DNA of 64,000 nt from positions 26,894 to 90,893 of the IMG/VR virus record IMGVR_UViG_3300010347_000503; one strand, written 5' to 3'. Shown here in pieces: positions 637-38,740 of this stretch (position 1 is the first letter of the stretch; the number at the start of each line of letters is the position of its first letter). The position numbers were made by a program, and so were the translations under genes. The notes under the pieces are model-generated. The model saw only the letters and a program-made list of their open reading frames with translations. It had not been told where the DNA came from and did not search any database. This DNA is from a virus. Taxonomy: Duplodnaviria > Caudoviricetes.

Positions 637-665
637 TTGAAAAACTTAAAAATTTTTGTTATAAT
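637..665 (+). promoter_or_regulatory. sigma70/sigmaA-type promoter with extended -10
   Basis: TTGAAA-17 nt-TATAAT with TG at -15/-14; the same block recurs throughout the window. Confidence 0.8.
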
Positions 666-686
666 ATATACATAAGATAAAAAAAA

Positions 687-804
687 TGAGTGGTGGCGGA
701 AAAGGTAGACGCTAAAAGGGCTCGGTACTTGATAGGGGAGAGGCAAAGAATTTGTGTCCTATCAACACAAAATTCATGTAAGGTGCAAATCCTTACCCAC
801 TCAA
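687..804 (+). ncRNA. anticodon-less tRNA-like RNA (Leu-type D and T arms)
   Basis: Acceptor TGAGTGG/CCACTCA; D arm TGGCGGAAAAGGTAGACGC; T arm GTAAGG-TGCAAAT-CCTTAC; no anticodon stem; long arm GAATTTGTGT/ACACAAAATTC. Confidence 0.7.
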
Positions 805-807
805 TAA

Positions 808-878
808 CCACGATTAGTACAATGGTAGTGCCTCCGTCTGATACGCGGATAACGGTGGACCGTAACCACCATCGTGGA
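808..878 (+). tRNA. tRNA-Ile(GAT), atypical T-loop
   Basis: Acceptor CCACGAT/ATCGTGG; anticodon arm TCCGT-CTGATAC-GCGGA; T-loop ACCGTAA. Confidence 0.8.
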
Positions 879-949
879 GTAGACACATTAACAGCAAATG
901 TTTATAATGGTGAAGAAAATCAAATGGGTTGATTTTTAGAGTGAACTTT

Positions 950-1435
950 GAGCGAGTTTTGATTAATCACTTCTTTCTCTCGCTCTTAAAAAAAATAATA
1001 AGTTGGAAGTGGTCCTTACTGGTGGGTTGGTCATAAACCAGTCGTTTATAGAGATGCCTAGCATAGACCCTCTCACTTAGGTGCGAGAAGCCTTAAAGAC
1101 GCGCGGTCAATGCTCTCGGTAATTAAAAGGTTTCCTAACGAGGTAAATAAAAAAGGAAAGTAATAGTTTGCAAACGAAAGGTATTGGTTGGTAGCCATTG
1201 GACAGATCCAAAAATATCAACAAGATTTGAACTTCAAATCTATGAGTATCACGGCTAACGAAGAAATTTCACGCCGGTCGGAATGAGAAATTTCAGGCGG
1301 TCTTGCGGAAGACAAGGTTGAGTGACTCTGAAATCTTCCTTTATTATGCTCTGCCCCCCGCAAAGGGCAAGTAAAGAATGGGATGCGGCGGTGTCTCCTA
1401 TGGAGGAGCCTGATACACCGGTCACAAATTCAGGC
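950..1435 (+). ncRNA. candidate large structured ncRNA between tRNAs
   Basis: No credible ORF, GC above background, many hairpins (e.g. AGATTTGAACTTCAAATCT, ATTTCAG/CTGAAAT, GGTGTC..GATACACC). Confidence 0.45.
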
Positions 1436-1439
1436 ATAT

Positions 1440-1517
1440 GGTCCCTGAGTCTGCGGTAGGCGTGGACGCCGCCCTGTCACGGCGGAAACTAGACGGGTTC
1501 GACCCCCGTAGGGATCG
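1440..1517 (+). tRNA. tRNA-Asp(GTC)
   Basis: Acceptor GGTCCCT/AGGGATC; CCGCC-CTGTCAC-GGCGG; T-loop TTCGACC. Confidence 0.85.
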
Positions 1518-1528
1518 TTTAAAAATTT

Positions 1529-1600
1529 GGTTGCGTAGTGTAGCGGTTAACACGCCTGACTGTCTCTCAGGTAGCGTGGGTTCGAATCCCACCGTGATCG
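1529..1600 (+). tRNA. tRNA-Asp(GTC)
   Basis: Acceptor GGTTGCG/CGTGATC; CCTGA-CTGTCTC-TCAGG; TTCGAAT. Confidence 0.85.
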
Positions 1601-1601
1601 T

Positions 1602-1739
1602 TTTGCAGTAGCTCAATTGGAAGAGCGCTAGATGGTCTAATCTAGGTCACATTGACGATACGTCATAGTTAGAGCCAATGGATTAGTCACCCATTTAGGT
1701 TTCGGTATGATGGTGCGGGTTCGAGTCCCGCCTGCATAG
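1602..1739 (+). ncRNA. tRNA-like RNA with about 70-nt expanded variable region
   Basis: D arm GCTC-AATTGGAA-GAGC; T arm GCGGG-TTCGAGT-CCCGC; acceptor TTTGCAG/CTGCATA; non-canonical CTAGAT/ATCTAG arm followed by extra hairpins. Confidence 0.6.
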
Positions 1740-1742
1740 TTA

Positions 1743-1823
1743 GGGAGTTGAGCAATAAGACCATCCGGTTGGTAAGGCAGTAAGCCTCTGTAGAAAGAGG
1801 CGGGGTAGTACCCGCAACTCTTC
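1743..1823 (+). ncRNA. small tRNA-like structured RNA
   Basis: Terminal stem GGGAGTT/AACTCTT; hairpins CCTCT/AGAGG and GCGGG-GTAGTA-CCCGC; no D or anticodon consensus. Confidence 0.4.
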
Positions 1824-1833
1824 CTCTCTATAT

Positions 1834-1905
1834 TGGGGTATAGTACAACGGTTAGTGCAGGCGTCTTATAAGCGTCTAACCTGGGTCCGACTCCCAGTAC
1901 CCCGA
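1834..1905 (+). tRNA. tRNA-Ile(TAT)
   Basis: Acceptor TGGGGTA/TACCCCG; GGCGT-CTTATAA-GCGTC. Confidence 0.85.
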
Positions 1906-1918
1906 CTAAAAAAGTTAT

Positions 1919-1947
1919 TTGACATTTCTTAAAAATTATGATATGAT
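1919..1947 (+). promoter_or_regulatory. sigmaA-type promoter
   Basis: TTGACA-17-TATGAT with TG extension. Confidence 0.8.
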
Positions 1948-1982
1948 ATATATATCAAAAGAAAAAATAAGAGGTGATAAAA

Positions 1983-2285
1983 ATGATTGTTGCTATTCAT
2001 GCATATGAAGAAATTTATGGTGGATTACATGGAATTGAAGATTATCTTGTTACTGAAGTAAAAGATTTAAAAATAGCAGAAGATATTGCATCAGATTTAG
2101 CTTATAATGTAGTTGAGGATTATTCTTATAATTTTGATGAAGAAGATTTAGAAGATCCTGAATTATGTTGGGAAATCTATGAAATAATTGATACAAAAGG
2201 TAAAACTGTAGAAAAATTGAATATTGAATATCATTATGATTCAGAGGGTTTTCTTACTGAATATAATTGCGTTCAAGTAGTTTAA
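1983..2285 (+). CDS. hypothetical acidic protein, paralog of 6030..6335
   Basis: N-terminus MIVAIHAYEEIYGGLH matches MIVAIHVYMETFHGFH; GAGG RBS. Confidence 0.75.
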   Translation: MIVAIHAYEEIYGGLHGIEDYLVTEVKDLKIAEDIASDLAYNVVEDYSYNFDEEDLEDPELCWEIYEIIDTKGKTVEKLNIEYHYDSEGFLTEYNCVQVV

Positions 2286-2293
2286 AAAGTTAT

Positions 2294-2322
2294 TTGACAT
2301 TTTAAAAAAAATATGATATAAT
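2294..2322 (+). promoter_or_regulatory. sigmaA-type promoter
   Basis: TTGACA-17-TATAAT with TG extension. Confidence 0.85.
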
Positions 2323-2344
2323 ATATATATCAAAAGAAAAAATT

Positions 2345-2585
2345 GGGGAGTTACCATTTAAAGAGCCTATCTTCCCCCTTACAAGCGCAAAGTAAGGTTA
2401 TTAAAAAGACTTGGAAAGTCGAAAAGGGAGATTAACCGCTACATTACAATTCCGGTGCGGTATATAAAATGCGGAAAGCACTGCCCGAGTACGGGGTGCG
2501 GTGAACTAATCTGCATAGGTTGTGACTGGTGTAATTTTTGCACGATGCAGAGATTTAAGGGTTTCAAGCGGAAAAGAAACGGGCT
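2345..2585 (+). ncRNA. candidate structured ncRNA
   Basis: Follows a promoter; stems CCTTAC/GTAAGG, ACCGC/GCGGT, CCCG-AGTA-CGGG, TCTGCAT/ATGCAGA, GGTTTC/GAAACC; no RBS-led ORF. Confidence 0.45.
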
Positions 2586-2588
2586 TAT

Positions 2589-2661
2589 GGCGGATTCGTC
2601 TAGCGGCTTAGGATCCCTGATTCTCAGTCAGGGGACATTGGTTCGAATCCAATATCCGTCA
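2589..2661 (+). tRNA. tRNA-Glu(CTC)
   Basis: Acceptor GGCGGAT/ATCCGTC; CCTGA-TTCTCAG-TCAGG. Confidence 0.9.
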
Positions 2662-2912
2662 TTTCCACAGAGCATAGAAACCAAAGTGGAGTATTGTAGC
2701 ATCCCCCTTTATGGCTGAACAAATAACTCGCTTTCCATAAGAAAGAGAATCAGGACTGGGTGTAAAGCTGACTTGGTAGGCTATGGTGGATAAAAACTGG
2801 ATACTGCGGAGAAAACCTGTTCTAACCAGTATAAAAAAGTAACAACAACCGCTTACTCAGAGCGTATAGATGGGGTGGAGGGTTTGCTAGTTTTCCTAGG
2901 TAAAAACTAGTA
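2662..2912 (+). ncRNA. candidate structured ncRNA
   Basis: ORF-free, GC above background; stems TCCAC/GTGGA, CTAGTTTT/AAAACTAG, ACTGG/CCAGT. Confidence 0.35.
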
Positions 2913-2915
2913 TAT

Positions 2916-2987
2916 GGCGGGTTCGACAAGTGGCTAAGTCGCGTCTCTTTCACGGACGAGTCAGGGGTTCGATCCCCCTACCCGCTA
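2916..2987 (+). tRNA. tRNA-Glu(TTC)
   Basis: Acceptor GGCGGGT/ACCCGCT; CGTCT-CTTTCAC-GGACG. Confidence 0.9.
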
Positions 2988-3059
2988 CGCAGAATGTTAA
3001 GTTCTGTCGCTTACCTCTTTTCTCTGGCTGGGCGACCAGTTAAAAAACGCCTATATTAT

Positions 3060-3132
3060 CGCGGGTTGGAGTAATTGGAAACTCACTTGCCTCATACGCA
3101 AGAGATTGCAGGTCCGAGTCCTGTGCCCGCAA
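3060..3132 (+). tRNA. tRNA-Met(CAT), C1:A72 mismatch (initiator-like) but no three G:C anticodon pairs
   Basis: CGCGGGT/GCCCGCA; CTTGC-CTCATAC-GCAAG. Confidence 0.85.
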
Positions 3133-3135
3133 TTA

Positions 3136-3247
3136 AAGACTCTAACAGCAATTTTGCTGGCTCCTAGCCAGGGTAGTCTAAAGGTTAAGACATTCAACAT
3201 TAAATTGAAAAATAGTGGTTCGAATCCACCCCCTTAAATAAGTCTTG
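3136..3247 (+). repeat. stem-ACAGCAA-stem cassette enclosing a degenerate tRNA
   Basis: AAGACT-CTAACAGCAA...AGTCTTG; inside are D arm GTCT/AGAC, TTCAA-CATTAAA-TTGAA and GTGG-TTCGAAT-CCAC; acceptor only 4 bp. Confidence 0.6.
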
Positions 3248-3256
3248 TAATAATAA

Positions 3257-3285
3257 TTGACATTAATAAAAAATTATGATATAAT
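3257..3285 (+). promoter_or_regulatory. sigmaA-type promoter
   Basis: TTGACA-17-TATAAT with TG extension. Confidence 0.85.
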
Positions 3286-3315
3286 ATTTATATAATAAAA
3301 TAAAAGGAGAGAAAA

Positions 3316-3444
3316 ATGATAAAGACAGAAAAGTTAGCATTAATTAAGGATAGATATAATAAGTTGGCGGGAACCCCGAAGAATGTAAAGGCGCCGGGTG
3401 TAGTGCGAAAATTGGCAAGACAAATTCGTAATATGGAAAAGTAA
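3316..3444 (+). CDS. small basic hypothetical protein (42 aa, missing from ORF track)
   Basis: AAGGAG RBS after a promoter; MIKTEKLALIKDRYNKLAGTPKNVKAPGVVRKLARQIRNMEK. Confidence 0.65.
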   Translation: MIKTEKLALIKDRYNKLAGTPKNVKAPGVVRKLARQIRNMEK

Positions 3445-3769
3445 AAATATTAGGAAGCGTTTGTTGTGAAAGGCAACTTGGTACAATAGTCCAATAACTA
3501 TTGATAGTGTGAGATAGAGCTTTGAGTCTTATGACTCCGCAGGCAGCGCAGGAATCACTCATGCATACCCTCTGTGGATAAAGGCTCTAATATATTTAAG
3601 CGGAAGATAATTAATCTTTCGTATATTACTTAGCACTGAAGTTATGCGGTGTACGAGGGTGACGCAAACAGGTCTTATTCTTTGCTTCGTTATAAAAAAC
3701 CTACTTTCTCCGAAATGAGAAAATAAAACTATTCTAATTCAAACAATAAGATAAGAGTTAGAGATTCAC

Positions 3770-3854
3770 GGGCGTGTGCCGAAACTGGAGAGACGGAGCG
3801 GATTTAAAATCCGCTACATTAGAAACGCTGTGGGTTCGAATCCCACCACGCCTA
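3770..3854 (+). tRNA. tRNA-Leu(TAA)
   Basis: GGGCGTG/CACGCCT; GCGGA-TTTAAAA-TCCGC; long variable arm. Confidence 0.9.
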
Positions 3855-3860
3855 CTTAAT

Positions 3861-3932
3861 GCAGTCATAGTTTAACGGTTAGAATTGGTGCTTGCCATGC
3901 ACCGGATACGAGTTCAATTCTCGTTGGCTGCT
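3861..3932 (+). tRNA. tRNA-Gly(GCC)
   Basis: GCAGTCA/TGGCTGC; GGTGC-TTGCCAT-GCACC. Confidence 0.9.
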
Positions 3933-3957
3933 TAATCTTAATATTGGAATAAGATAT

Positions 3958-4031
3958 GCCCGACTACCCCAACTGGCAGAGGGATATGATTAAGGGTCAT
4001 AGCAGTCTGGATTCGAATTCCAGGTCGGGCA
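3958..4031 (+). tRNA. tRNA-Leu(AAG), short variable arm
   Basis: GCCCGAC/GTCGGGC; TATGA-TTAAGGG-TCATA; TTCGAAT. Confidence 0.75.
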
Positions 4032-4152
4032 TTTATAAAAAAATTTATAATCGAATAAAGTGACTGTCGTAATAGACCTGGTCCACCACCTGATACTTAA
4101 AGTCGGGGAACTCCAGAGGAAGTCCTCTGCAAGGCGGGTTGAGCCGCCAAAT

Positions 4153-4223
4153 AGGCCTCTGGTGTAACGGTAGCATACGCGGCTCCAACCCGCTTGGTCA
4201 GGGTTCGAATCCTTGGGGGCCTG
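4153..4223 (+). tRNA. tRNA-Trp(CCA)
   Basis: AGGCCTC/GGGGCCT; GCGG-CTCCAAC-CCGC. Confidence 0.9.
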
Positions 4224-4234
4224 GTTAATATAAT

Positions 4235-4325
4235 AGGGGTGTAGCATAATGGTTAATGCAGCTGTCTCTAAAACAGCCAGGTGCGTCCAAACCACCGGAT
4301 GTGGGTTTAAATCCTACCACCCCTG
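4235..4325 (+). tRNA. amber suppressor tRNA (CTA), long variable arm, G73 (Ser-like body)
   Basis: AGGGGTG/CACCCCT; GCTGT-CTCTAAA-ACAGC, anticodon at 4268-4270; variable arm GGTG/CACC. Confidence 0.85.
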
Positions 4326-4328
4326 TAT

Positions 4329-4440
4329 CGAGAGGTAGTTTAATGGCAGAACGCTGTTTTTGAATTTAGAAATAAATTTTTACAGCAGTTTCTTTTTGCT
4401 TGGGGAGCCGGTAATGCAGGTTTGAATCCTGCCCTTTCGA
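4329..4440 (+). tRNA. tRNA-Pro(GGG) interrupted by about 41 nt in the anticodon stem
   Basis: CGAGAGG/CCTTTCG, A73; removing 4357..4397 restores CTGGC-TTGGGGA-GCCGG. Confidence 0.65.
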
Positions 4441-4489
4441 TTAAGAGCTTTATAGGAAAAAGGGGTTGGTACCTCCTATATAAAAATTA

Positions 4490-4581
4490 ACCTAAGTCTA
4501 ATTATTAATACCAACAGTAATTAGATAAGCGACGGACAGTTCGGGTTGATGTGTATATGGGTTCGATTCCCATCTTAAGTA
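4490..4581 (+). ncRNA. possible tRNA-like RNA (T arm plus acceptor only)
   Basis: ATGGG-TTCGATT-CCCAT followed by CTTAAGT, which pairs imperfectly with ACCTAAG; long hairpin TCTAATTA/TAATTAGA instead of a D arm. Confidence 0.3.
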
Positions 4582-4597
4582 ACTGAGTCTTGTTTAT

Positions 4598-4684
4598 ACG
4601 GGTTTACTCTAATTGGTAAGAGACTGGTCTTGAAAACCAGCGTAGCTGTCAAAGGCGATCGGGGTTCGAGTCCCTGAGCCCGTG
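4598..4684 (+). tRNA. tRNA-Ser(TGA)
   Basis: ACGGGTT/AGCCCGT; CTGGT-CTTGAAA-ACCAG; long variable arm. Confidence 0.9.
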
Positions 4685-4740
4685 GTTAAAGAGAGGGAGG
4701 AGTTTCAGAAGCGCTGCTATCTGGGGCTTTTTTCTTTTAT

Positions 4741-4772
4741 GTGCTGAAAATATTTATTTTCAGCACTTTTTT
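4741..4772 (+). terminator. intrinsic terminator ending the tRNA run
   Basis: GTGCTGAAAA/TTTTCAGCAC stem followed by a T-run. Confidence 0.7.
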
Positions 4773-4969
4773 ATTTAGAATAAAGTTACAATAATCTGCT
4801 CGGGCGGCAAACGTGCGTCACGTGGGAAACAATTAGGTGTTTTGACTTTTTTCAAGGCAATTTTTATTATTGGACAATTTTAGAAATAAGGTCTCCCGCG
4901 ATTTTTATATTTTAATAAAGAATATACTCTTTTATAACAGAGTCAATTTATTAAAAGGAGGAAACAATA

Positions 4970-5149
4970 ATGTTTAAAATAATATCTAACCTTGAAGCTG
5001 GAGTTGTTGAGATTATGGCAGATGAAAGATCAGATATAGATAATTTACCAGATACTTCAGAAGTAAGTATGGGAAGTAATTGTCTTGTAATTGAAGATGG
5101 TTCTGTATGGATTCTCAATAGCGAGGATGAATGGGTTGAAATTGAATAA
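4970..5149 (+). CDS. small acidic hypothetical protein (59 aa, missing from ORF track)
   Basis: AAGGAGG RBS; MFKIISNLEAGVVEIMADERSDIDNLP...EWVEIE. Confidence 0.7.
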   Translation: MFKIISNLEAGVVEIMADERSDIDNLPDTSEVSMGSNCLVIEDGSVWILNSEDEWVEIE

Positions 5150-5181
5150 ATAAATCTGTATAGAAAGGAGATTTATTTATT

Positions 5182-5973
5182 ATGAAAATAGAAGGAAATA
5201 TAAAACAATTATTTTATATAGATATAATAGATACAAATAGATGGATTCAAAAAGGTTTTGATAAAGACGGAATAAAATTTGAAGATAGAGAAATTAAGGA
5301 TATTCAAGGAACTCTTTGCACAATGAAATACGCAATAATAAGATTCAATAAAAATGCACAAGGACAATCTCAAGCTAGCGGAAAAGGAGGGGTTGTAAAA
5401 ATAGGTTACTCTTGTAGACCTTCTATTACTAGATTTCCTATATTTTTAACTTATCCTAATGATGCAAATGAATATTGTATTTATATAGGAAAAACTGGAT
5501 TATTTGAATCTCAAACTGATACTTGGATGGATGTAAATAACGAAGATCCAAAAGCAAGAGAAGAGCAAGTAAGTGTTGTAGAAGTAACTTCTATAGCGAT
5601 TCCATGGGCCTATCCTAATGGAATTACTACTTTTAATGAATTTGAATCAATTATTGACTATGTTGAATCAACTGATAAAGAAGGCACTTATAATATAAAA
5701 AATCAACCAGATCCATATAATCATTCTATAAAGCCTATTGTAACTAATAGAGATTTTTCTTGTAGACAACATATTATAGCTTATGTTGATTCAGAAGATC
5801 GTTTTATTTTTAAAGTAAAAGCAAAAAAACCATCATTAAAATGTAATAACTGTCAAGAAGGAGTTCATGCAACGGTAAATGCTGATAATGAAACTGCTTA
5901 TTTTTATAGTATATGTAAACAGCATATATATTTTTCAGGTGCAAGAGAAACTTTTTCTGTAAATTTTATTTGA
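5182..5973 (+). CDS. hypothetical protein
   Basis: 263-aa ORF, AAGGAG RBS. Confidence 0.75.
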   Translation: MKIEGNIKQLFYIDIIDTNRWIQKGFDKDGIKFEDREIKDIQGTLCTMKYAIIRFNKNAQGQSQASGKGGVVKIGYSCRPSITRFPIFLTYPNDANEYCIYIGKTGLFESQTDTWMDVNNEDPKAREEQVSVVEVTSIAIPWAYPNGITTFNEFESIIDYVESTDKEGTYNIKNQPDPYNHSIKPIVTNRDFSCRQHIIAYVDSEDRFIFKVKAKKPSLKCNNCQEGVHATVNADNETAYFYSICKQHIYFSGARETFSVNFI

Positions 5974-6029
5974 TTTTTTAAAAAATTTTTGATATAATAT
6001 ATATATCAAATGAAAAAAGAGGAAAAAAT

Positions 6030-6335
6030 ATGATAGTAGCTATTCACGTATATATGGAAACATTTCATGGATTTCATGAACTAGATGATTATACTATTAA
6101 AAAAGTAAATGATGTTTTTGAAGCAGATGACCTAGCGAATAATATATGCGAAATTATTATTAAAAAATGTATTGATGATGAATATGATATTAATGATTGT
6201 GATATTGATTATGAAATTTATGAATTAGAGTTAGATAAACTACCTATTGGAAAAGAACTTTGTGATTTAGCTCAAAATTTTTCTCTTGATAAAGGTAATT
6301 TTTTAAAAATGTATAATGCAAAAAGGTTGTTTTAA
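6030..6335 (+). CDS. hypothetical acidic protein, paralog of 1983..2285
   Basis: Shared MIVAIH N-terminus; preceded by the same promoter block. Confidence 0.75.
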   Translation: MIVAIHVYMETFHGFHELDDYTIKKVNDVFEADDLANNICEIIIKKCIDDEYDINDCDIDYEIYELELDKLPIGKELCDLAQNFSLDKGNFLKMYNAKRLF

Positions 6336-6392
6336 AAAATTATTTGATATTTTTAAAAATTTATGATATAATAAATATGTAATAAAAAAGAA

Positions 6393-6452
6393 AAGGCACC
6401 TACAGCAAATTTATTTTATACTTCTACTTTTAATAGTAAATTTTGTGCCTTG
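6393..6452 (+). repeat. stem-ACAGCAA-stem cassette with Lys-like anticodon hairpin
   Basis: AAGGCAC-CTACAGCAA...GTGCCTTG; inside is TTCTA-CTTTTAA-TAGTA. Confidence 0.6.
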
Positions 6453-6493
6453 ACAATCGGGGTGTAAGTCAGTTGGTAGACTGCGTGATTTGG

Positions 6494-7161
6494 TAAAAAA
6501 ACTTTAATATAACTCCAAATAAACCATGGATGAAACACTTATTCGTGGCGATGTAAATGAACTCCAATGTATTTTAGACTTCCAAAAAAGAGGGTATTAT
6601 TGCAGTATTCCTTTCAGCGGTTCTTGTAGATACGATGTAGTTGTAGATATAAATAATAAATTATATCGTATTCAATGTAAATCATCTACTTTTCATGAAG
6701 AAGATGGAACATTAAGAATGTATGCTATTAGAACTACAACAAATACTCAAAAAACAATAAGGTATTCCTATTCAAAAGAAGAAGTAGATTTCTTTTATAC
6801 AAGTTGGAATAATTATGGCTTTTTAATTCCTGTGAATGAAGTTTCAACGACTAAATATTTAAGAGTAAAAAAGCCAAAAAATGGAATACAAGAGGGGATG
6901 TCTATTGCTGCTGATTATCTTATTGACAATGTTTTAGAAGCTATTGTTAATAATAAATCAATCAGTAAATATCAAGATAATAGATTTATTTCATGGAAAG
7001 AAAATGAACTTGAAAAAGTTTGGTCTGTTGATGAATTAAAATCTGTTTATCAAGATAGACAAATAAGATATATAAAGGAGTGCATCGCAAACAACAAAAT
7101 GGCTTATCAATATAATTGGAAGTATAAGGAGTTCCCTGAGTTATAAGAGTATTTTTTACTG
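6494..7161 (+). mobile_element. endonuclease-encoding tRNA intervening sequence without a group I core
   Basis: Ends pair (GTAAAAAA/TTTTTTAC, TATAACTC/GAGTTATA); the ORF fills 621 of 668 nt; no GACTA/TAGTC P7 as in the 12 group I introns here. Confidence 0.75.
6526..7146 (+). CDS. PD-(D/E)XK homing-endonuclease-like protein (I-Ssp6803I-like) with C-terminal NUMOD-like tail
   Basis: GDVNELQC...YDVVVD...RIQCKS motif spacing typical of intron-associated PD-(D/E)XK nucleases. Confidence 0.75.
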   Translation: MDETLIRGDVNELQCILDFQKRGYYCSIPFSGSCRYDVVVDINNKLYRIQCKSSTFHEEDGTLRMYAIRTTTNTQKTIRYSYSKEEVDFFYTSWNNYGFLIPVNEVSTTKYLRVKKPKNGIQEGMSIAADYLIDNVLEAIVNNKSISKYQDNRFISWKENELEKVWSVDELKSVYQDRQIRYIKECIANNKMAYQYNWKYKEFPEL

Positions 7162-7390
7162 GATCACGATGCCGTGGGTTCGAGTCCCGCCACCCCGATT
7201 AACCTTTTTGCTATTCAGCACCTTAAAATAAGGTATAGGTTAAAATATAATTTTTTAAGCGAAAATTATATTTCAAGGAAATTGTGAATATTGGTGGAAA
7301 AAATATCTATAAATGATATTTAAAAGAAAGCTCTATGGCTTAGATAGAGATCAATGAAATCACCAATACAAACTTTCTTTTAAATATTAT

Positions 7391-7463
7391 AGCTCATTAG
7401 CAGAATGGAATATGCGGGCGCCTCAAAAGTGTCAATTTCTGGGTTCGAATCCCAGATGGGCTA
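7391..7463 (+). tRNA. tRNA-Leu(CAA), short variable arm
   Basis: AGCTCAT/ATGGGCT; GGCGC-CTCAAAA-GTGTC. Confidence 0.75.
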
Positions 7464-7570
7464 GTGGTACTTAATAGTACCTGTAATGTACCTCTCCTTT
7501 CATCGTAAGTTGTGGTTATCAACGTGCTATAAGCGGGAACTGCTAGAGATCTTGAATCTGGTTCCCGTAT

Positions 7571-7641
7571 AGGGGATTAGCTTAATGGTAGAGCAGCGGG
7601 TTTTGATCCCGCGTGTGTGGGTTCGACTCCCGCATCCCTTA
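7571..7641 (+). tRNA. tRNA-Gln(TTG)
   Basis: AGGGGAT/ATCCCTT; GCGGG-TTTTGAT-CCCGC. Confidence 0.85.
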
Positions 7642-7791
7642 TTTACAGGGGTTAGTAATCTCTGTATAGTGAAAAAAATATCCATTAGAAAGTCGCCTGG
7701 ATAAGGCGCGCGCATCTTTTAAAGAGTGGATCCGGATTCTTTGCCCATATAGGGACACTAATGGCGTTTGCGGTCGACGATAAACCGCTTT

Positions 7792-7864
7792 ATCCCTGTA
7801 AGCTAATGGAATAGACTACTAGGTTACGACCCTAGATGTGTGGGTTCGAATCCCGCTGGGGATG
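7792..7864 (+). tRNA. tRNA-Arg(ACG)
   Basis: ATCCCTG/TGGGGAT; CTAGG-TTACGAC-CCTAG. Confidence 0.85.
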
Positions 7865-7867
7865 TAA

Positions 7868-7939
7868 GCAGGCGTAGTCTAATGGAAAGAACAGGGCACT
7901 TCTAATGCTCTAATGGGGGTTCGATTCCCTCCGCCTGTA
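7868..7939 (+). tRNA. tRNA-Arg(TCT)
   Basis: GCAGGCG/CGCCTGT; GGGCA-CTTCTAA-TGCTC. Confidence 0.9.
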
Positions 7940-7972
7940 GTTAGTCCTACTTTGCAAAAAGGAGGTATTAAA

Positions 7973-8266
7973 ATGTCTCGTTCATACAAAAAGAGTCCAG
8001 TTTATACAGATGGTAACGCGGGTACAACAAAAGAAATGAAGCGTTTAGCTAATAAAGTAGTTAGAAATACAGATTTTGATAAATTACCAATGAAAGGGAA
8101 AGGATATAAAAAATGTTTTCAATCTTGGAATATTCACGATTGGAGAGATAGATATACTAAACAAGAATGGGCAAATTATTATAATAAACAAATTAATCAT
8201 TGGTGGTTTACAGATACATATGAAGAACATATGAAACAATGGGATAAAATGTATCGGAGAAAATAA
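7973..8266 (+). CDS. hypothetical basic protein
   Basis: AGGAGG RBS supports a start at 7973 rather than 7913. Confidence 0.75.
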   Translation: MSRSYKKSPVYTDGNAGTTKEMKRLANKVVRNTDFDKLPMKGKGYKKCFQSWNIHDWRDRYTKQEWANYYNKQINHWWFTDTYEEHMKQWDKMYRRK

Positions 8267-8268
8267 AA

Positions 8269-8504
8269 ATGAAAACTGAAATAAAAATCAATGTTAATGA
8301 TTTAGAAACTTTTATAGCAGCATTAAATAATGCTATTATTGCTTATAATGATATTAGAGAGCGCCTTTCTTTTTTGGTATTGAGGAAGAAAATTTAAACT
8401 CTAAATGGTATGAAAATACTGGTCTTAATTATGAAATATTAACTGAAAGAATTGAAGAATTAAAATATGTATATGACCAATTATTAGAATTGGAAAATAA
8501 ATAA
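8269..8504 (+). pseudogene. hypothetical protein with -1 frameshift at a T6 run (8370-8375)
   Basis: MKTEIKINV...RLSF continues as FGIEEENL...LENK in the -1 frame. Confidence 0.55.
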
Positions 8505-8858
8505 GGGGTCGAAACAGTTTCGACGGGGTCTTGAAAATTATTAGTTCGCACGAAATGATATGCGCGTTATGCAATCAAACTTAAAATAAACGCAAAAGTT
8601 ATTTCTTTTAATTCTTATAGACCGGTAGCTATGGCTGCCTAATATAATGAATACCTCAAGTAATTCTATCGCTTCTGGTCAATGCTTGAGTGTTTAAGTA
8701 AAAGAAGCAAGTCGGTTCTTTGTAAACGCAGTTAGGAACAAAGTGGTGGGTCTAGGCAAAAACCTGTTAAAGTGAGAGAACACTTAGAAAACGCTATTGC
8801 GTAAAAAACTAATAATTAGTATGGATTTCGGACGCGGGGGCAGAGCCCGCCGGCTCCA
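8505..8858 (+). ncRNA. ssrA: tmRNA; tag peptide (A)KVISFNSYRPVAMAA* at 8592..8642
   Basis: 5-prime GGGGTCGAAACAGTTTCGAC; 3-prime GGACGCGGG..CCCGCCGGCTCCA; G3:U70 alanyl determinant; AATAAAC-GCA resume context; tag ends in AA. Confidence 0.92.
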
Positions 8859-8862
8859 CTTT

Positions 8863-8931
8863 AAGACGCTAACAGCAAAAATTTTAATATTTTTCCTACC
8901 AAATTTTTAGGATTCATTATAAAGCGTCTTG
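8863..8931 (+). repeat. stem-ACAGCAA-stem cassette
   Basis: AAGACGCT-AACAGCAA...AGCGTCTTG directly after the tmRNA. Confidence 0.65.
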
Positions 8932-8957
8932 ACATTTTAAAAAAATTATGATATAAT
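8929..8957 (+). promoter_or_regulatory. sigmaA-type promoter
   Basis: TTGACA-17-TATAAT with TG extension. Confidence 0.85.
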
Positions 8958-8998
8958 ATATATATCAAAACAAACAAAGAAAGGTAAATAAAAATCAA

Positions 8999-9304
8999 AT
9001 GGCAAAAAATTGGACATTGATTTACACAAATGCAGACACGACAACAGAAACAAGAGCAGAGAAAGTGCGGAAGGCGCGTAAGATTGATAATACAATCAGA
9101 AATATGAAATCACCGACCGCAGATCAATTAAAAAGAGAATCAGAGTTTACCTATGAAGTTAAAACTCTTGAGGAAGAGAAATTGCTTCGAGCTTTCGATG
9201 AAAAAAAGGTAAAATCAAAGGCGGCAATCAAGCAGGCATTGCGAATTAAAAGAGAACGAGCTGCCGCAGAAAAGAAAAAGGAAGCAGAAGCAGTAGAATC
9301 TTAA
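8999..9304 (+). CDS. hypothetical charged helical protein
   Basis: 101-aa ORF downstream of a promoter. Confidence 0.7.
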   Translation: MAKNWTLIYTNADTTTETRAEKVRKARKIDNTIRNMKSPTADQLKRESEFTYEVKTLEEEKLLRAFDEKKVKSKAAIKQALRIKRERAAAEKKKEAEAVES

Positions 9305-9372
9305 TAGATAAATGCCAAGAGCAAATGATGGCATTAAAGTTATGGGCGGTTGACTGACCTAAAGTTATAGAT

Positions 9373-9445
9373 GCTCCTGTAGTTCAAACGGATAGAACCC
9401 CGGCTTTGTAACCCGGTAATCTCGGATCATACCCGAGTGGGAGCT
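9373..9445 (+). tRNA. tRNA-Thr(TGT), atypical T-loop
   Basis: GCTCCTG/TGGGAGC; loop TTTGTAA; T-loop ATCATAC. Confidence 0.8.
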
Positions 9446-9540
9446 TTAAAAATTTTTCCAAATTTTGGGCGCAAGTTCATATAAGTATTAGATTTAATAA
9501 ACATAAAAGTGCTTCTATGAATAAAAATGATCCAAATTAA

Positions 9541-9660
9541 ATTGGTAAAGATTATGGAGTAACCGATAATACAATAAGAAAATGGTGTGTTGCAGAAAAT
9601 TTACCAAAAAGAAAAAAAGATATAAATGAAATATCTGATGAAAATTAGATTAATATTTAA
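9541..9660 (+). pseudogene. remnant of a homing-endonuclease C-terminal HTH
   Basis: IGKDYGVTDNTIRKWCVAENLPKRKKDINEISDEN*INI, with no intact start. Confidence 0.55.
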
Positions 9661-9664
9661 AAAC

Positions 9665-9735
9665 GCACTCGTAGTTTAAAGGAAAAATACTAGGCTTCCA
9701 ACCTGGAGTTGTGGTGTCAGGATCCATCGGGTGCT
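9665..9735 (+). tRNA. tRNA-Gly(TCC), atypical T arm
   Basis: GCACTCG/CGGGTGC; CTAGG-CTTCCAA-CCTGG. Confidence 0.75.
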
Positions 9736-9737
9736 TT

Positions 9738-9844
9738 AGGGCGAACAGCAAATCTTCTTCTAAATTAATAGAAGAACAAGAATAATTATGATGATACAAA
9801 TTATTCAAGGATTGTAAAAGATGTAATCTTTTTCCTGCCCTTAG
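9738..9844 (+). repeat. stem-ACAGCAA-stem cassette with three internal hairpins
   Basis: AGGGC-GAACAGCAA...GCCCT; inner stems TTCTTCT/AGAAGAA, GAATAATT/AATTATTC, AGGATT/AATCTT. Confidence 0.55.
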
Positions 9845-9921
9845 ACAATTAAAGGAAGAAGAGAAGCCATGATGAGAGTGTAAAACTCACTCCATTTTAC
9901 AATCATATACTTATTAGATCC

Positions 9922-9969
9922 GCCCCCACATATTATACTATACGATAACTTTGTGGGGGCATTTTTTTT
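9922..9969 (+). terminator. hairpin plus T-run (terminator-like)
   Basis: GCCCCCACA/TGTGGGGGC followed by ATTTTTTTT. Confidence 0.55.
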
Positions 9970-10043
9970 GTGATGGTCATCCAAGTGGCTTAAGGTACGC
10001 GGCTGCAACCCGCGGATCGTAGGTTCGAATCCTACCCATCACT
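9970..10043 (+). tRNA. tRNA-Cys(GCA)
   Basis: GTGATGG/CCATCAC; CGCGG-CTGCAAC-CCGCG. Confidence 0.9.
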
Positions 10044-10374: not shown

Positions 10375-11935
10375 ATGAACACTTTTTTGAATGAAATGAA
10401 GAACGCTTCTAACTATGCAGTAACAGAGAACGGGGCTTTAGCACATAAAACCACACGTTCCGCAGTTTACGATATGTTTGCTCTTGGCGGTGCTTACCGC
10501 AAGAGAAGTGATGAAGACTGTATTCTCTTATTCAAGAACGCTCTTGAAGAGAATGAGACTCTGGCATTGAAGTGTCTGTTTTATTTACGTGATTGCCGCG
10601 GAGGTAAGCTCTTTGCCTAGCCTCCCTATATAGTGATATATAGTAAAAAATTCTGTGAACCCAAGCAAAAGGGGTGTCAGATTTAATCTGGCTAACGGTT
10701 CAGAAGATAGAAATATCGTTATGAGTAAGGGAACCTAAGTCTTATAAAGATATGGTAATACCGTGCCAAGCTACATTTGGTCAATTTTATAAAAATATTT
10801 TCTTATTATTTTAATATCTCTATGTAAGATTAGAACAGGGAGAAAAAATATGGGATATATTTATAAAATTGAAAACTTAATAAATCATAAAATTTATATT
10901 GGGCAAACTACTAAAGAACGACCTACTGATAGATTTAGTCAGCATCGTTATTTAACTAGGCATCCAGAACAAGAAACTTCTATTAGTTATCTTCATAGAG
11001 CGATGAATAAATATGGGGTAGAGAATTTTTCTTTTGAAATTATTGAAGAAATTGAAGATAATCTTCTTAATGAGAGAGAGCAATATTGGATAAAAGAAAA
11101 AGAATCTTTAATGCCAAATGGCTATAATATGACAATAGGTGGAGAAGGAACCATAGGATATTCAAGAATTCAATCTAAAGAAGAAAAAATGAAAAGAAGT
11201 AAATCAGTAAAAAAATTTTATGAGAATAATCCAGAAGCTATTAAAAAATTAAGAGAAAGAACTTTATCTTTATGGCAAGATGAAGAATACAGAAAACGAG
11301 TGACGGAAAGTAATAAAAAATTTTATTCTGAACATCCTGATAAATTTAAAGGAGAAAATAATCCAATGTATGGTAAACATCATACAGAAGAATCATTAGA
11401 AAAAATTCGTAACCATGCCGCAACTCGAAAAAATAAAATTGCCCAATTAGATAAAGACACTTTAGAAATTATTAACATTTATGATGGAATAAAAGATGCT
11501 GAAAAAGCGTTAGGTGTTGGTCATGGATGGATATCTAAAGCGGCAAGACAAGATAAAATTGCTTATGGATACAAATGGAAACTTATGTAGAAGGTGTAAC
11601 GACTAATATGTAGAATAGAGATTAGCACTATTCGAAGCGCAGAACTCTTTCTTAATTTTGGTTAAGAGAGATGAAGAGATAGTCTGCGAAATTATGAAAA
11701 TAATTTTATCGCCGTGCAGGGTGAAAGACGCTTCTTCCGCGTTTGCTATAAGTGGTTAGCTACTAAACACGCAGATATTGCTCGTAAATACATTGAGTGC
11801 ATCCCATATTATGGACGCTATGATGATATTTATTGCTTATTTAATACTCCTCTTGAACAAGATGCTTTAGCTTTTATTAAAAAAGAAATTGATAATGGCT
11901 TAGAAATTTTAGGTGCGTTAGATGAGTTGGGATAA
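10375..11935 (+). CDS. Ro60/TROVE-like (DUF2828-type) protein, N-terminal part; join(10375..10605,11717..11935), 149 aa
   Basis: TENGA..DMFA...YLRDCRGG|QGERRFFR is restored by splicing; ends LGALDELG*. Confidence 0.75.
10606..11716 (+). mobile_element. group I intron with GIY-YIG homing endonuclease
   Basis: Exon ends in U with P1 GGAGGT/GCCTCC; P7 strands ACGACTAA and GAGATAGTC; terminal G; in-frame ligation. Confidence 0.9.
10850..11590 (+). CDS. intron-encoded GIY-YIG endonuclease with NUMOD3/NUMOD1
   Basis: GYIYKIEN..KIYIGQT; ENNPMYGKHHTEES; KIAYGYKW. Confidence 0.9.
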   Translation: MGYIYKIENLINHKIYIGQTTKERPTDRFSQHRYLTRHPEQETSISYLHRAMNKYGVENFSFEIIEEIEDNLLNEREQYWIKEKESLMPNGYNMTIGGEGTIGYSRIQSKEEKMKRSKSVKKFYENNPEAIKKLRERTLSLWQDEEYRKRVTESNKKFYSEHPDKFKGENNPMYGKHHTEESLEKIRNHAATRKNKIAQLDKDTLEIINIYDGIKDAEKALGVGHGWISKAARQDKIAYGYKWKLM

Positions 11936-11954
11936 AAGTAAAAGGAGAATAAGT

Positions 11955-13010
11955 ATGGAAAATAATACAGGATTAATTTTTAAATGGTTAAAGTCAGAAA
12001 ATGCTTCTTCTAAAGAAAAAGCAATAGCTGTAAAAATAAGAAAATATCTTGGAATGACACATAAAGAATATAGAAAAATGCTTTCTTACGGAAGAGAAAA
12101 GACAAATGTTTTAGAAAAATTAATGTCTTCAAATGAGTGGAATAAAATAGACTTTTCTAAAATCCCTTCTAAGGCTGGTTTAATCTATAAGAATGCATTC
12201 GCAAGACGAGATATTATTGCAAAGAAGTATGAAGATTTTGCAAAAGATAAGAATACTACAGTTAATGCTGCGACTTTATATCCTTATGAAGTTGTTGCTA
12301 AAGCAATTGATACTTTTGGCTGGAGTTGTTGGGATAGAGGAACAGCAACTGAAACGGATAGAGCTATGATTGAAAAATATTGGAATAATCTTACAGATTA
12401 TTTTAATGGAAAACAGTCTAATATGCTTTGCGTAGTAGATACTTCAGGTTCTATGCACGGAACTCCTATTAATGTAGCTATTTCTCTTGGTATTTATTGT
12501 GCAGAGCGAGCTGGCGGTCCTTTTAAAGATCACTATATTAGTTTTAGTTCTCGTCCGCAGTTAATTAAGGTTGAAGGTGTTGATTTTGTAGATAAGGTTA
12601 AACGCATCTATCTAACAAATTTGTGTGCGAATACTAATCTTACACGCACTTTCGATATGCTTCTTGAAATTGCAAACCGCCCTGGAGTAAAAGAGGAAGA
12701 TATTCCAGAAACTATCTGTGTAATTAGTGATATGGAAATTGATTGCATGTCAAATTGGGGTTCTTCTAATACACAGACTGAAATGGAAAAAGTAAGAGAG
12801 AAATGGGCTAGATATGGACATAAACTTCCTAAGTTAGTATACTGGAATGTCGATGCTCGTAATAATATTATCTTGGATGGCGGTCCGGATGTTACATTCG
12901 TATCTGGTATGAGTCCAGTCATTTTCGAGAATGTCTTGACAGGTAAAACTGGTTGGGATTTATGTCTTGAGAAATTGCTTTCTAAGAGATATGAAGCTAT
13001 CACTGCTTAA
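11955..13010 (+). CDS. Ro60/TROVE-like protein, C-terminal part with vWA (MIDAS) domain
   Basis: Own AAGGAG RBS; KWLKSENAS; VVDTSGSM; ISDME; YWNV. Confidence 0.8.
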   Translation: MENNTGLIFKWLKSENASSKEKAIAVKIRKYLGMTHKEYRKMLSYGREKTNVLEKLMSSNEWNKIDFSKIPSKAGLIYKNAFARRDIIAKKYEDFAKDKNTTVNAATLYPYEVVAKAIDTFGWSCWDRGTATETDRAMIEKYWNNLTDYFNGKQSNMLCVVDTSGSMHGTPINVAISLGIYCAERAGGPFKDHYISFSSRPQLIKVEGVDFVDKVKRIYLTNLCANTNLTRTFDMLLEIANRPGVKEEDIPETICVISDMEIDCMSNWGSSNTQTEMEKVREKWARYGHKLPKLVYWNVDARNNIILDGGPDVTFVSGMSPVIFENVLTGKTGWDLCLEKLLSKRYEAITA

Positions 13011-15299: not shown

Positions 15300-16559
15300 A
15301 TGATAAATAGAAATACTCAGATGCGCGAACTCGCATACGTCGTTACGGTTGACGCAGTAGAGCCTATTTCTGGTCGTGACCGTGTAGAATGTGCTAGAGT
15401 AGGTGGTTGGACTTGTATGGTTCCAAAGGGTGCATTTAAAGCTGGTGATCCGGGTATCTATTTTGAGATTGACTCTCAGGTTCCTGTAGATAAAGATCCG
15501 TTTAAGTTCTGTGAGAAATATAAGGGACGCATTAAGACTCAGAAATTCAAGACCCCGGATGGTCAGTTCTGGTCTCAAGGTCTCTTAATGGCTGCCGCAG
15601 ATTTTGGTTGGACTACTGATTTTGCTCAGTTTGCTGGAGATTTTGGTTTTATTGTAGATGATAAGGGCGTGCAGCATATTCCTGGAGAAGAGTCTGCATT
15701 TTTAACTACTCAGCTTGGCGTAACTTATTATGAGATAGAGGACCAGAAGCGGAAGGCTGCATCTACTGTTGATAAGTATAAGAAAATGGCTGGACGTCAT
15801 CCACAGCTTTTCAAGAACAATGCTATTGTAAAATGGCTTTATAAGCGGAATTGGGGTAAAAAGCTGCTGTTTGTTTTCTTTGGAAAGAAAAAGGACAAGA
15901 CTGCGTGGCCGCAGTGGGTAGTTAAAACGGACGAGGAACGCGTTCAAAATATTCCTTTTATACTCCAGAGTGATATTCCTTGGTACGCAACTGAGAAGAT
16001 CGATGGAACCAGCACAACTTTCACTATGAAAGGAAGAGGACGCAAAAGAGAGTTTTATATCTGTTCTCGTAATGTATGTTTTGATACTCCTGAGAAGATG
16101 GAAAAGGGTGCTTGGTACGATACCAATGTATATCAAGAGATGGCGATTAAATACAATGTAGAGCAGGTACTTGCAGATATTATGGATTTATTCAAGGATC
16201 TTGAGTTCGTAACTCTTCAGGGTGAGACCTTCGGGGCTGGTATTCAGAAGAGAGATTACGGAATGAAGGATCATGATTTCCGCGCTTTCAATCTGATCTT
16301 CGGTTATAAGAATGGAGAAAAAGAGCGTTTTAATCCGCGGAGAATGACTGACTTCCTTAAACAATTCGGTATTCCTTCTGTGCCGATTGTAGATGAACAT
16401 TTCATTCTTCCGGATACTGTTGAAGAGCTGCTTAATATTGCAACTGACAAATCTGAAATTGATGGCGGAATGCGGGAAGGTTTAGTATTCCGTTCTGCAG
16501 ATGGCACTCAGAGTTTTAAAGCAGTATCTAATGAATTTTTATTGAAATATCATCAGTAA
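15300..16559 (+). CDS. ATP-dependent RNA ligase, Rnl2/DRB0094-type
   Basis: Motif I TEKIDGTS, III LQGETFG, IIIa FRAFNL, IV REGLVF, V FKAVS; N-terminal OB-like module. Confidence 0.88.
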   Translation: MINRNTQMRELAYVVTVDAVEPISGRDRVECARVGGWTCMVPKGAFKAGDPGIYFEIDSQVPVDKDPFKFCEKYKGRIKTQKFKTPDGQFWSQGLLMAAADFGWTTDFAQFAGDFGFIVDDKGVQHIPGEESAFLTTQLGVTYYEIEDQKRKAASTVDKYKKMAGRHPQLFKNNAIVKWLYKRNWGKKLLFVFFGKKKDKTAWPQWVVKTDEERVQNIPFILQSDIPWYATEKIDGTSTTFTMKGRGRKREFYICSRNVCFDTPEKMEKGAWYDTNVYQEMAIKYNVEQVLADIMDLFKDLEFVTLQGETFGAGIQKRDYGMKDHDFRAFNLIFGYKNGEKERFNPRRMTDFLKQFGIPSVPIVDEHFILPDTVEELLNIATDKSEIDGGMREGLVFRSADGTQSFKAVSNEFLLKYHQ

Positions 16560-38629: not shown

Positions 38630-38740
38630 AGTGCGGTGGCGGAATAGGTAGACGCTGGTCAGGAGGATCCCAAAGGCATCTTGTGAGTGTGTCCGTGTGG
38701 GTGTAGATGCTATGTAGGGTGCAAATCCCTACCCGCATTT
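38630..38740 (+). ncRNA. anticodon-less tRNA-like RNA, second family member
   Basis: AGTGCGG/CCGCATT; TGGCGGAATAGGTAGACGC; GTAGGG-TGCAAAT-CCCTAC; long arm GCATCT/AGATGC; own promoter-like block upstream. Confidence 0.72.

Follow-up and report, generated by a model that had tools for sequence, protein, structure and literature searches.

Just ahead of a tRNA array in a large phage genome, positions 687–804 (element A) have the ends of a tRNA and, between them, a segment of another kind where the anticodon arm should be. Is this a broken or interrupted tRNA gene, or a gene for an RNA that does not decode, and what might such an RNA do? We find that element A and a second copy in the same genome, element B, are real genes for non-decoding RNAs derived from class-II tRNA-Leu. 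That both are members of a maintained, anticodon-less, tRNA-Leu-derived RNA family is, in our estimate, about 95% probable.

Genome and locus

The window, that is, the whole 64-kb stretch analysed here, is the 3′ part of a 90.9-kb IMG/VR virus record that is estimated to be 58% complete and comes from a large phage; no near-identical phage was found in GenBank. Besides the RNA ligase listed in Table 1, its genes include those for a phosphoesterase, PhoH/PIN, gyrase A and B, NAD-ligase, DnaB, primase, RecJ and a Pol III alpha fragment. The tRNA array spans 808–10043, with 19 ARAGORN tRNA calls, and contains a tmRNA at 8505–8861 (Rfam RF00023, 70.7 bits). Phage-encoded tmRNAs are also found in relatives (L313 and L051).

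Several further loci in the window deserve mention in their own right. At 1602–1739, a 138-nt Rfam tRNA match (36.4 bits) that ARAGORN does not call combines a normal acceptor, a Lys/Val-like D arm and a canonical T arm with a 6-nt-loop hairpin at the anticodon-arm site and approximately 67 extra nucleotides, folded into several hairpins, before the T arm. It is a tRNA-shaped oddity distinct from the Leu-frame family. Another match uncalled by ARAGORN (4329–4440, 112 nt, 43.8 bits) has a stem CTGTT/AGCAG around a 25-nt loop, followed by a 26-nt variable region, and Rfam-only tRNA matches also occur at 3170–3234 and 9665–9735. A 93-nt tRNA with the anticodon CUA (amber suppressor type) and a long variable arm, labelled tRNA-Pyl by ARAGORN, lies at 4234–4326 and has counterparts of the same kind in relatives L043 and L316; TAG recoding of some genes is possible. 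Finally, the ORF at 53768–55645, which encodes an anaerobic ribonucleotide reductase (NrdD), may carry an intein, judging from a sub-threshold Pfam intein-splicing match over residues 211–476.

Table 1 Coordinates of elements A and B and of neighbouring features in the window
Feature	Position	Strand	Remarks
Sigma-70-like promoter match (candidate), TTGAAA-17-TATAAT with extended TG	637–665	+	11/12 consensus matches; 22 nt upstream of element A
Element A, acceptor 5′ strand TGAGTGG	687–693	+	7/7 bp with CCACTCA 797–803
Element A, U8 G9 (694–695) and Leu-type D arm GCGG-AAAAGGUAGA-CGC (696–712)	694–712	+	Direct reading
Element A, private 65-nt core	713–777	+	Replaces anticodon and variable arms
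Element A, T arm	778–796	+	6-bp stem GTAAGG (778–783)/CCTTAC (791–796), loop TGCAAAT (784–790)
Element A, acceptor 3′ strand CCACTCA and discriminator A804	797–804	+	Without encoded CCA
DUF2828/DUF7788 gene, N-terminal piece	10375–10617		phrog_850 'RNA-binding protein'
GIY-YIG/NUMOD homing endonuclease gene	10850–11590		Splits DUF2828/DUF7788 gene
DUF2828/DUF7788 gene, C-terminal piece	11922–13007		
RNA ligase	15300–16556		RNA-repair-type gene; the phage also carries a phosphoesterase
Element B, acceptor 5′ strand AGTGCGG, U8 G9, Leu-type D arm	38630–38655	+	R1 80.5 bits (element B)
Element B, private 58-nt core	38656–38713	+	AGGAGG-bearing linker, hairpin, UAU junction
Element B, T arm, acceptor 3′ strand and discriminator	38714–38740	+	T stem GTAGGG/CCCTAC (6 bp), loop UGCAAAU, acceptor CCGCATT, discriminator U38740
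recJ-like ORF	38772–40583		Shine-Dalgarno and start directly 3′ of element B

Elements A and B share a tRNA-Leu frame

A sequence-only reading of this DNA had described 687–804 as an anticodon-less tRNA mimic with a 7-bp acceptor, a Leu-type D arm, a TGCAAAT loop and a 6-bp T stem. Direct reading supports this frame, as does R1, the covariance model that we built for the phage tRNA-Leu-frame family, which scores 687–804 at 80.1 bits (Table 1). Written in full, the D arm is GCGG-AAAAGGTAGA-CGC. The core consists of a linker (713–747), a hairpin (748–775) and A776 U777 of a conserved YAU junction, which reads CAU here. The linker is the 35-nt purine-rich segment that had been noted in place of the anticodon arm; its purine content is 71%. 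The core of element A is unrelated to that of element B and to that of the orthologue in the closest relative. Directly before the element, where a promoter had been proposed, lies the sigma-70-like match of Table 1, a candidate promoter by its agreement with the consensus, and tRNA-Ile begins at 808, 3 nt past the element.

The second member with the same architecture that had been noted at 38630 was confirmed by direct reading and by R1. We place its start at 38630 (A1–U72, G2·U71) rather than at 38631, and its acceptor stem has 7/7 pairs including one G·U. The core hairpin is closed by GCATCT (38676–38681) and AGATGC (38705–38710). Element B sits between primase-like and recJ-like genes, 32 nt before recJ, and no good promoter match precedes it. 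Both elements carry the Leu-type D arm UGGCGGAAnAGGUAGACGC, and the same D arm is present in genuine phage tRNA-Leu. Searching the whole record with R1 returned exactly two copies, A and B, at approximately 80 bits each, and nothing else in the window scored below E = 1. Across loci, members reached 50–88 bits, versus 25–42 bits for genuine phage tRNA-Leu in the same loci.

A widespread family with covarying stems

Two copies in one phage, the scope of the earlier reading, turned out to be a small part of a far wider family. The search pattern GGTAGACGC-N40-70-GGTGCAAATCC matched at least 117 loci in viral contigs and 108 loci in one-genome-per-species prokaryote contigs, mostly from Bacillota. 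Outside this phylum, the matched contigs came from Pseudomonas, Comamonas, Methylobacillus, Methylobacterium, Dyadobacter, Acidobacteria and two archaeal MAGs, and the frame is conserved across hosts of several phyla. Samples from the matches listed comprised 183 unique elements, 149 non-redundant members that were aligned, and 164 members that were tested for anticodon arms.

The acceptor is paired at 7/7 positions in 152 of the 183 elements, and every position shows all four Watson–Crick pair types; 167 of 183 have a T stem of 6 bp. In the 149-member alignment, 97.4% of stem cells are paired, versus 72.4% in shuffles and 36–45% in slid controls. The same alignment contains 628 double-change cells, and all seven acceptor columns covary across the family. 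The sixth T-stem pair is G–C in 126, A–U in 9 and C–G in 3 of these 149 members. The segment from U8 through the D arm (694–712 in element A) is nearly invariant in the alignment, as is GTGGCGGAATA, which the search pattern left unfixed, in the 183 unique elements, with the caveat that the near-invariance of some positions was partly imposed by the pattern. The discriminator varies: A in 98 (54%), T in 62, C in 13 and G in 10 of the 183.

Orthologues found by synteny deviate from the pattern, with UUCGAAU loops or a GACGU D stem. The orthologue of element A in the closest relative has a similar TTGACA/TATAAT promoter, a 130-nt core and a 6-bp T stem, together with a canonical UUCGAAU loop. Because of this loop, UGCAAAU must be regarded as common, not obligatory, and the pattern as having overstated its invariance.

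Divergent and reduced forms were also encountered. Upstream of recJ, two relatives (L274:1980–2052 and L275:2642–2714) have a form in which a 15-nt linker connects the 7-bp acceptor with a 6-bp T arm (loop UGCAAAU), and D arm and core are absent; this reduced version is either a decayed remnant or a minimal form. One divergent member (L061:1372–1541) pairs a D loop AAUAAGUAGA with a T loop UGUAAAU, and a P100plus member (L329:4113–4254) is without both G18 G19 and C56. These two cases hint at co-variation of the D-loop/T-loop tertiary pair. In the closest relative, a Leu-frame element after tRNA-Gln (L313, G001:17300–17418) has a T arm of the canonical form GGGTTCGATTCCCAC, and its core encloses a second hairpin that resembles a T arm; the counterpart of this site in the window, the gap 7643–7790, folds well and has no R1 match.

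Neither element has an anticodon arm

No anticodon arm (5-bp stem, 7-nt loop with U33 and a Leu anticodon) is present in element A or B. ARAGORN makes no call for either, and neither is matched by any family of Rfam 15 at E ≤ 10. The tmRNA model RF00023 matches neither of them, and the window's tmRNA is the separate locus within the array. Among the 164 members tested, ARAGORN, with or without its intron option, calls three, two of which are ordinary tRNA-Leu genes caught by chance; an anticodon-like hairpin occurs at the canonical place in five, including these two. We also looked for a continuum towards decoding tRNA-Leu with a UGCAAAU loop and rejected it, as a scan at shorter spacing gave only short-core, anticodon-less members. 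The massive covariation, together with the lack of an ARAGORN tRNA reading in 161 of 164 members, agrees with the earlier proposal of a maintained phage family of non-decoding tRNA mimics.

A D arm identical to that of real phage tRNA-Leu, in an element that sits in a tRNA array, might instead mark a decaying tRNA-Leu pseudogene or a tRNA-Leu gene with a removable intron. The overwhelming covariation of the stems in 149 lineages is compatible with neither. An anticodon arm cannot be reconstructed, the cores share no sequence, and the phages carry ordinary tRNA-Leu beside the element. Group I introns are far longer than these cores, which measure 58–65 nt in A and B and from approximately 14 nt upward elsewhere, and no Rfam intron model matched. 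An intron whose removal would yield an ordinary tRNA-Leu, which the sequence-only reading had named as evidence against itself, was found neither in A and B nor in 161 of the 164 members. At the level of sequence, the pseudogene or intron explanation is refuted, and we give it next to no credence.

Cores are structured and exchanged as modules

Core lengths range from approximately 14 nt (elements of 67–88 nt) to approximately 130 nt (elements of 141–186 nt). The cores are A/G-rich and usually consist of a 10–15-nt linker, often a small A–U hairpin, and then a long irregular hairpin that ends just before the conserved YAU, which is the position of the variable arm in class-II tRNAs. Their folding stability exceeds that of dinucleotide shuffles (mean z −0.84 ± 0.10), with 17% below −2. 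For a Lactobacillaceae subfamily, RNAalifold recovered the frame as well as a core hairpin with compensatory changes and conserved loops. Because the folds beat shuffles and compensatory changes occur in this subfamily, the core module is functional rather than junk. A cis-antisense role of the core was considered and rejected, as we found no excess complementarity to the 500 nt on either side.

Frame and core recombine independently. We counted 149 core clusters versus 137 distinct acceptor stems. Four unrelated cores share one acceptor and an identical upstream flank and, conversely, 12 core clusters were found with different acceptor stems, several of these unrelated. At the site upstream of recJ, relatives whose RecJ proteins are 66–74% identical have elements whose cores are unrelated and whose overall lengths are 114, 122 and 175 nt, and orthologous sites in close relatives hold unrelated cores of approximately 60 to 130 nt.

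The sequence-only reading had also seen a pseudoknot in element A, formed between the linker and the loop of the long hairpin. The complementarity itself is real: TTGATAGG (729–736) and CCTATCAA (758–765) form a perfect 8-nt inverted repeat, and such a complement appeared in 18 of 2,000 shuffled cores. However, the resulting helix competes with the hairpin at 748–775 (−32.6 versus −34.0 kcal/mol), and if both helices formed together, the connecting loops would have zero length, a strained arrangement by standard H-type pseudoknot geometry. The orthologue of A in the closest relative does not have the 8-nt complement, and there is no signal for a linker–loop pseudoknot across the family (2.42 versus 2.35 in shuffles). 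A linker–loop pseudoknot is not a family trait; the complement may be a private two-state feature of element A, or chance.

Settings in phage genomes

In recurrent gene clusters, nearly every neighbouring ORF has the same orientation as the element, and the elements occur in tRNA arrays or between late activators and HNH/TerS/TerL genes. In many Bacillota siphophages of approximately 40 kb, the upstream gene encodes a late transcriptional activator (phrog_248, phrog_36; RinA in phage Sha1) and the downstream genes encode HNH, TerS and TerL. Tandem copies occur, in arrays of 2–3. A sigma-70-like −35/−10 pair lies within 43 nt in 5 of 183 elements only, and we therefore rejected an upstream promoter as a feature of the family.

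Members are present in well-studied phages. SPP1 carries one at NC_004166.2 6647–6756 (80.4 bits with R1), unannotated and under the dubious minus-strand 'gene 10' in the oriR 'moron' segment; the paper on the revisited SPP1 genome makes no mention of tRNA (PMC6316719). Just after this member (L317:1610–1665), a hairpin with a T-arm-like loop, CGGG-TTCAATT-CCCG, is set in a longer stem and followed by a T run, and looks like a mini tRNA-like terminator. In phi3T, an unannotated member follows the HU-like gene yonN (62.5 bits). With blastn, we found matches to the conserved D-arm or T-arm segment in Listeria phages LP-114 and LP-037, in Lactobacillus phages LP65, phiJL-1, Sha1 and Lb338-1, in Leuconostoc phage Ln-9, and in Enterococcus, Weissella and Brochothrix phages. 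The GenBank records examined leave the element blank or cover it with a dubious ORF, and no description of the family was found in Rfam 15 or in the literature searched by full text.

This arrangement could point to a cis-acting role as 'tRNA punctuation', in which the fold would let RNase P and 3′ enzymes cut a polycistronic transcript at operon boundaries, with the ends of the mRNAs fixed by the cut and the released RNA as a by-product. The elements are nearly always co-oriented and intergenic at module boundaries (late activator/element/HNH-TerS-TerL; primase/element B/recJ), and most small-phage copies are without a sigma-70-like promoter of their own, as the count above shows. A cutting signal would, however, have no need of cores that are selected for structure and exchanged as units. 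Nor does it account for tandem arrays, for copies inside tRNA arrays already full of RNase P sites, or for copies such as element A that lie behind a promoter match of their own. We consider punctuation an unlikely function.

A Ro-like gene near the tRNA array

The sequence-only reading raised the possibility that the RNA partners a Ro60-like protein encoded in the same genome. Just downstream of the tRNA array, 9.6 kb from element A, lies a DUF2828/DUF7788 gene split by a homing endonuclease gene (Table 1), probably as an intron or mobile insertion. Its product is 33–37% identical to mycobacteriophage proteins annotated as 'Ro-like RNA binding protein' and has a homologue in P100-type Listeria phages. 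The TROVE domain has no match in the whole 90.9-kb record.

A Y-RNA-like partnership with this protein would be in keeping with the location of the split gene near the tRNA array. In addition, such a protein is encoded by the P100-like Listeria phage CKA15, in which unannotated regions close to the tRNA genes are highly transcribed (PMC12282133), and the divergent P100plus member described above (36.7 bits) lies beside tRNA-Asn in a P100-type record. The YrlA family (RF02553) does resemble the elements in being a non-decoding tRNA mimic with D-like and T-like arms that occurs in some phages. The topology is the opposite, however: YrlA ends in its Ro-binding stem and has its 'acceptor' stem closed (PMC4201824), whereas the 5′ and 3′ ends of A and B lie in the acceptor stem, so that the two are circularly permuted relative to each other. 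The comparison with the Rfam YrlA model, suggested earlier, gave no match to A or B at E ≤ 10. Most carriers are siphophages of approximately 40 kb, and the neighbourhoods of the many small siphophage copies, those of SPP1 type among them, yielded no Ro-like gene. Given the permuted topology, the unmatched model and the record without TROVE, we rejected the YrlA/Ro60 link and regard a partnership with the DUF2828/DUF7788 protein as highly improbable.

A proposed role for the tRNA frame as carrier of an exchangeable module

What might a tRNA frame with an exchangeable core do? The mechanism that we favour, which we rate at slightly below even odds, is that the frame carries a swappable RNA module. 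The RNA would be transcribed together with neighbouring tRNAs or mRNAs and excised by the host tRNA-processing machinery, with RNase P acting at the 5′ end, followed by 3′ trimming and CCA addition. The frame holds the acceptor/T coaxial stack and the D/T elbow that tRNA-processing enzymes recognise, and the RNA is therefore probably excised in the manner of a tRNA; the CCA end is probably added, since none is encoded. If the host machinery does excise it, the frame would be a natural scaffold for processing and stability, and might also serve a tRNA-binding protein as a handle. Specificity would come from the swappable module, acting in trans on a fast-evolving target of the host or a rival phage. 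Engineered tRNA scaffolds of this design are processed and stable in Escherichia coli (PMC3753655), which is why we favour a natural scaffold with a specificity module. Some observations sit less easily with it. A scaffold role by itself leaves the constant Leu-type D arm, the UGCAAAU loop and the 6-bp T stem unexplained, the cores have no excess complementarity to the flanking 500 nt, and mini-versions without a D arm exist.

In a bolder version, to which we attach perhaps a quarter of our belief, the tRNA scaffold would be a universal expression and stability cassette for short RNA modules, exchanged rapidly (aptamers, mimics), that bind fast-evolving factors of the host or a rival phage, such as defence proteins, and neutralise them. 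If true, the elements would constitute a large unrecognised class of RNA effectors of counter-defence or host takeover in hundreds of phage lineages, including SPP1 and phi3T.

Another possibility, which we hold to be doubtful, is a charged, non-ribosomal tRNA-Leu mimic: a CCA-ended RNA that would be leucylated by host LeuRS and serve as a leucyl donor or titrate LeuRS. Such an RNA would be kept off EF-Tu and the ribosome by its 13-bp acceptor/T helix, its G55 T loop and its missing anticodon. Its appeal lies in the retained tRNA-Leu D arm, with U8–A14, G18 G19 and an A15/U48-type junction, and in the independence of LeuRS charging from the anticodon arm (PMC2377443). Staphylococcal non-proteogenic tRNA-Gly species, which bind EF-Tu and the ribosome poorly, likewise have TGC or TGT, not TTC, in the T loop (PMC7826273). 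However, substitutions of A73 cost LeuRS 45- to 143-fold and G18–U55 is also critical (PMC2377443), yet position 55 is G and the discriminator is A in only 98 of 183 elements. Element A has A804 but G55, and element B has U38740 and G55. No recurrent transferase or other tRNA-dependent enzyme is found among the neighbours, and charging would leave the structured, swappable cores unexplained.

Alternatively, the tRNA frame itself could be the active part, as a decoy that baits or sponges host or rival enzymes recognising the elbow or acceptor (for example, tRNA-directed defence nucleases or toxins that modify the 3′ end) while decoding goes on undisturbed. A family that is confined to phages and prophages, often multi-copy or tandem, non-decoding and conserved in its frame across hosts of several phyla would suit this role, as would the RNA-repair-type genes of the window phage, the RNA ligase and the phosphoesterase. 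However, the best-known tRNA-targeting defences cleave anticodon loops, which are missing here, and a decoy would not need a structured, covarying, swappable core. We think a decoy improbable, and return to the frame that carries a module.

If the variable module is indeed the effector, phages would have in this family a new and very common means of deploying small RNAs, and the engineered tRNA scaffold would have a natural counterpart. The function of the T4 and T5 tRNA-like stable RNAs is a half-century-old question; it becomes directly testable because this family is large, strongly covarying and present in tractable model phages. A covariance model of the family would also improve the annotation of tRNAs and non-coding RNAs in phage and prophage sequence.

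Relation to known tRNA-like RNAs

The evolutionary source of the family is clearly class-II tRNA-Leu (RF00005), with which it shares the D arm, U8, the acceptor stem and the overall frame. It differs in having no anticodon arm, a T stem of 6 rather than 5 bp, mostly UGCAAAU in place of UUCRANU, and a variable discriminator. The engineered tRNA scaffold of Ponchon and Dardel also retains the acceptor, T and D arms, carries an arbitrary structured insert in place of the anticodon arm, and owes its precise ends and stability to cellular tRNA processing (PMC3753655); it is man-made, and the analogy is one of mechanism only. The staphylococcal non-proteogenic tRNA-Gly species have a T loop with UGC or UGU instead of UUC, and therefore no pseudouridine-55, and are kept out of ribosomal translation (PMC7826273). 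Unlike the elements, they are encoded by the host, serve peptidoglycan synthesis and combine 7/5 geometry with a normal anticodon arm. We also considered the AcrIIIA1 protein–RNA complex and set it aside as unrelated, as it binds fragments of host tRNAs.

Among phage RNAs, the T4 species 1 and 2 RNAs (rnaC and rnaD) are small stable RNAs at the end of the T4 tRNA cluster, and rnaC ends in a canonical T arm and an acceptor-like strand; they differ in being without a Leu-type D arm, and R1 does not match them at E ≤ 10. The closest known system is T5 RNA1 (and also T5 RNA2). T5 RNA1 is annotated at NC_005859 30501–30644 as a misc_RNA, 'tRNA-like stable RNA with unknown functions'. Situated in a phage tRNA cluster, it has a Leu-type D arm UGCCGGAAUUGGUAGACGG, an acceptor stem and a T arm, with an insert of approximately 85 nt replacing the anticodon and variable arms. 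It differs in its canonical UUCAACU T loop and 5-bp T stem, and its R1 score of only 24 bits does not exceed that of a real tRNA-Leu. Because of the canonical T arm and this score, we regard T5 RNA1 as an RNA of the same kind rather than as a demonstrable member, perhaps independently derived. This kind of RNA is thus old, known from T4 and T5; neither Rfam 15 nor the literature searched yielded the widespread 7+6, mostly G55 family or its occurrence in small temperate and virulent Bacillota phages.
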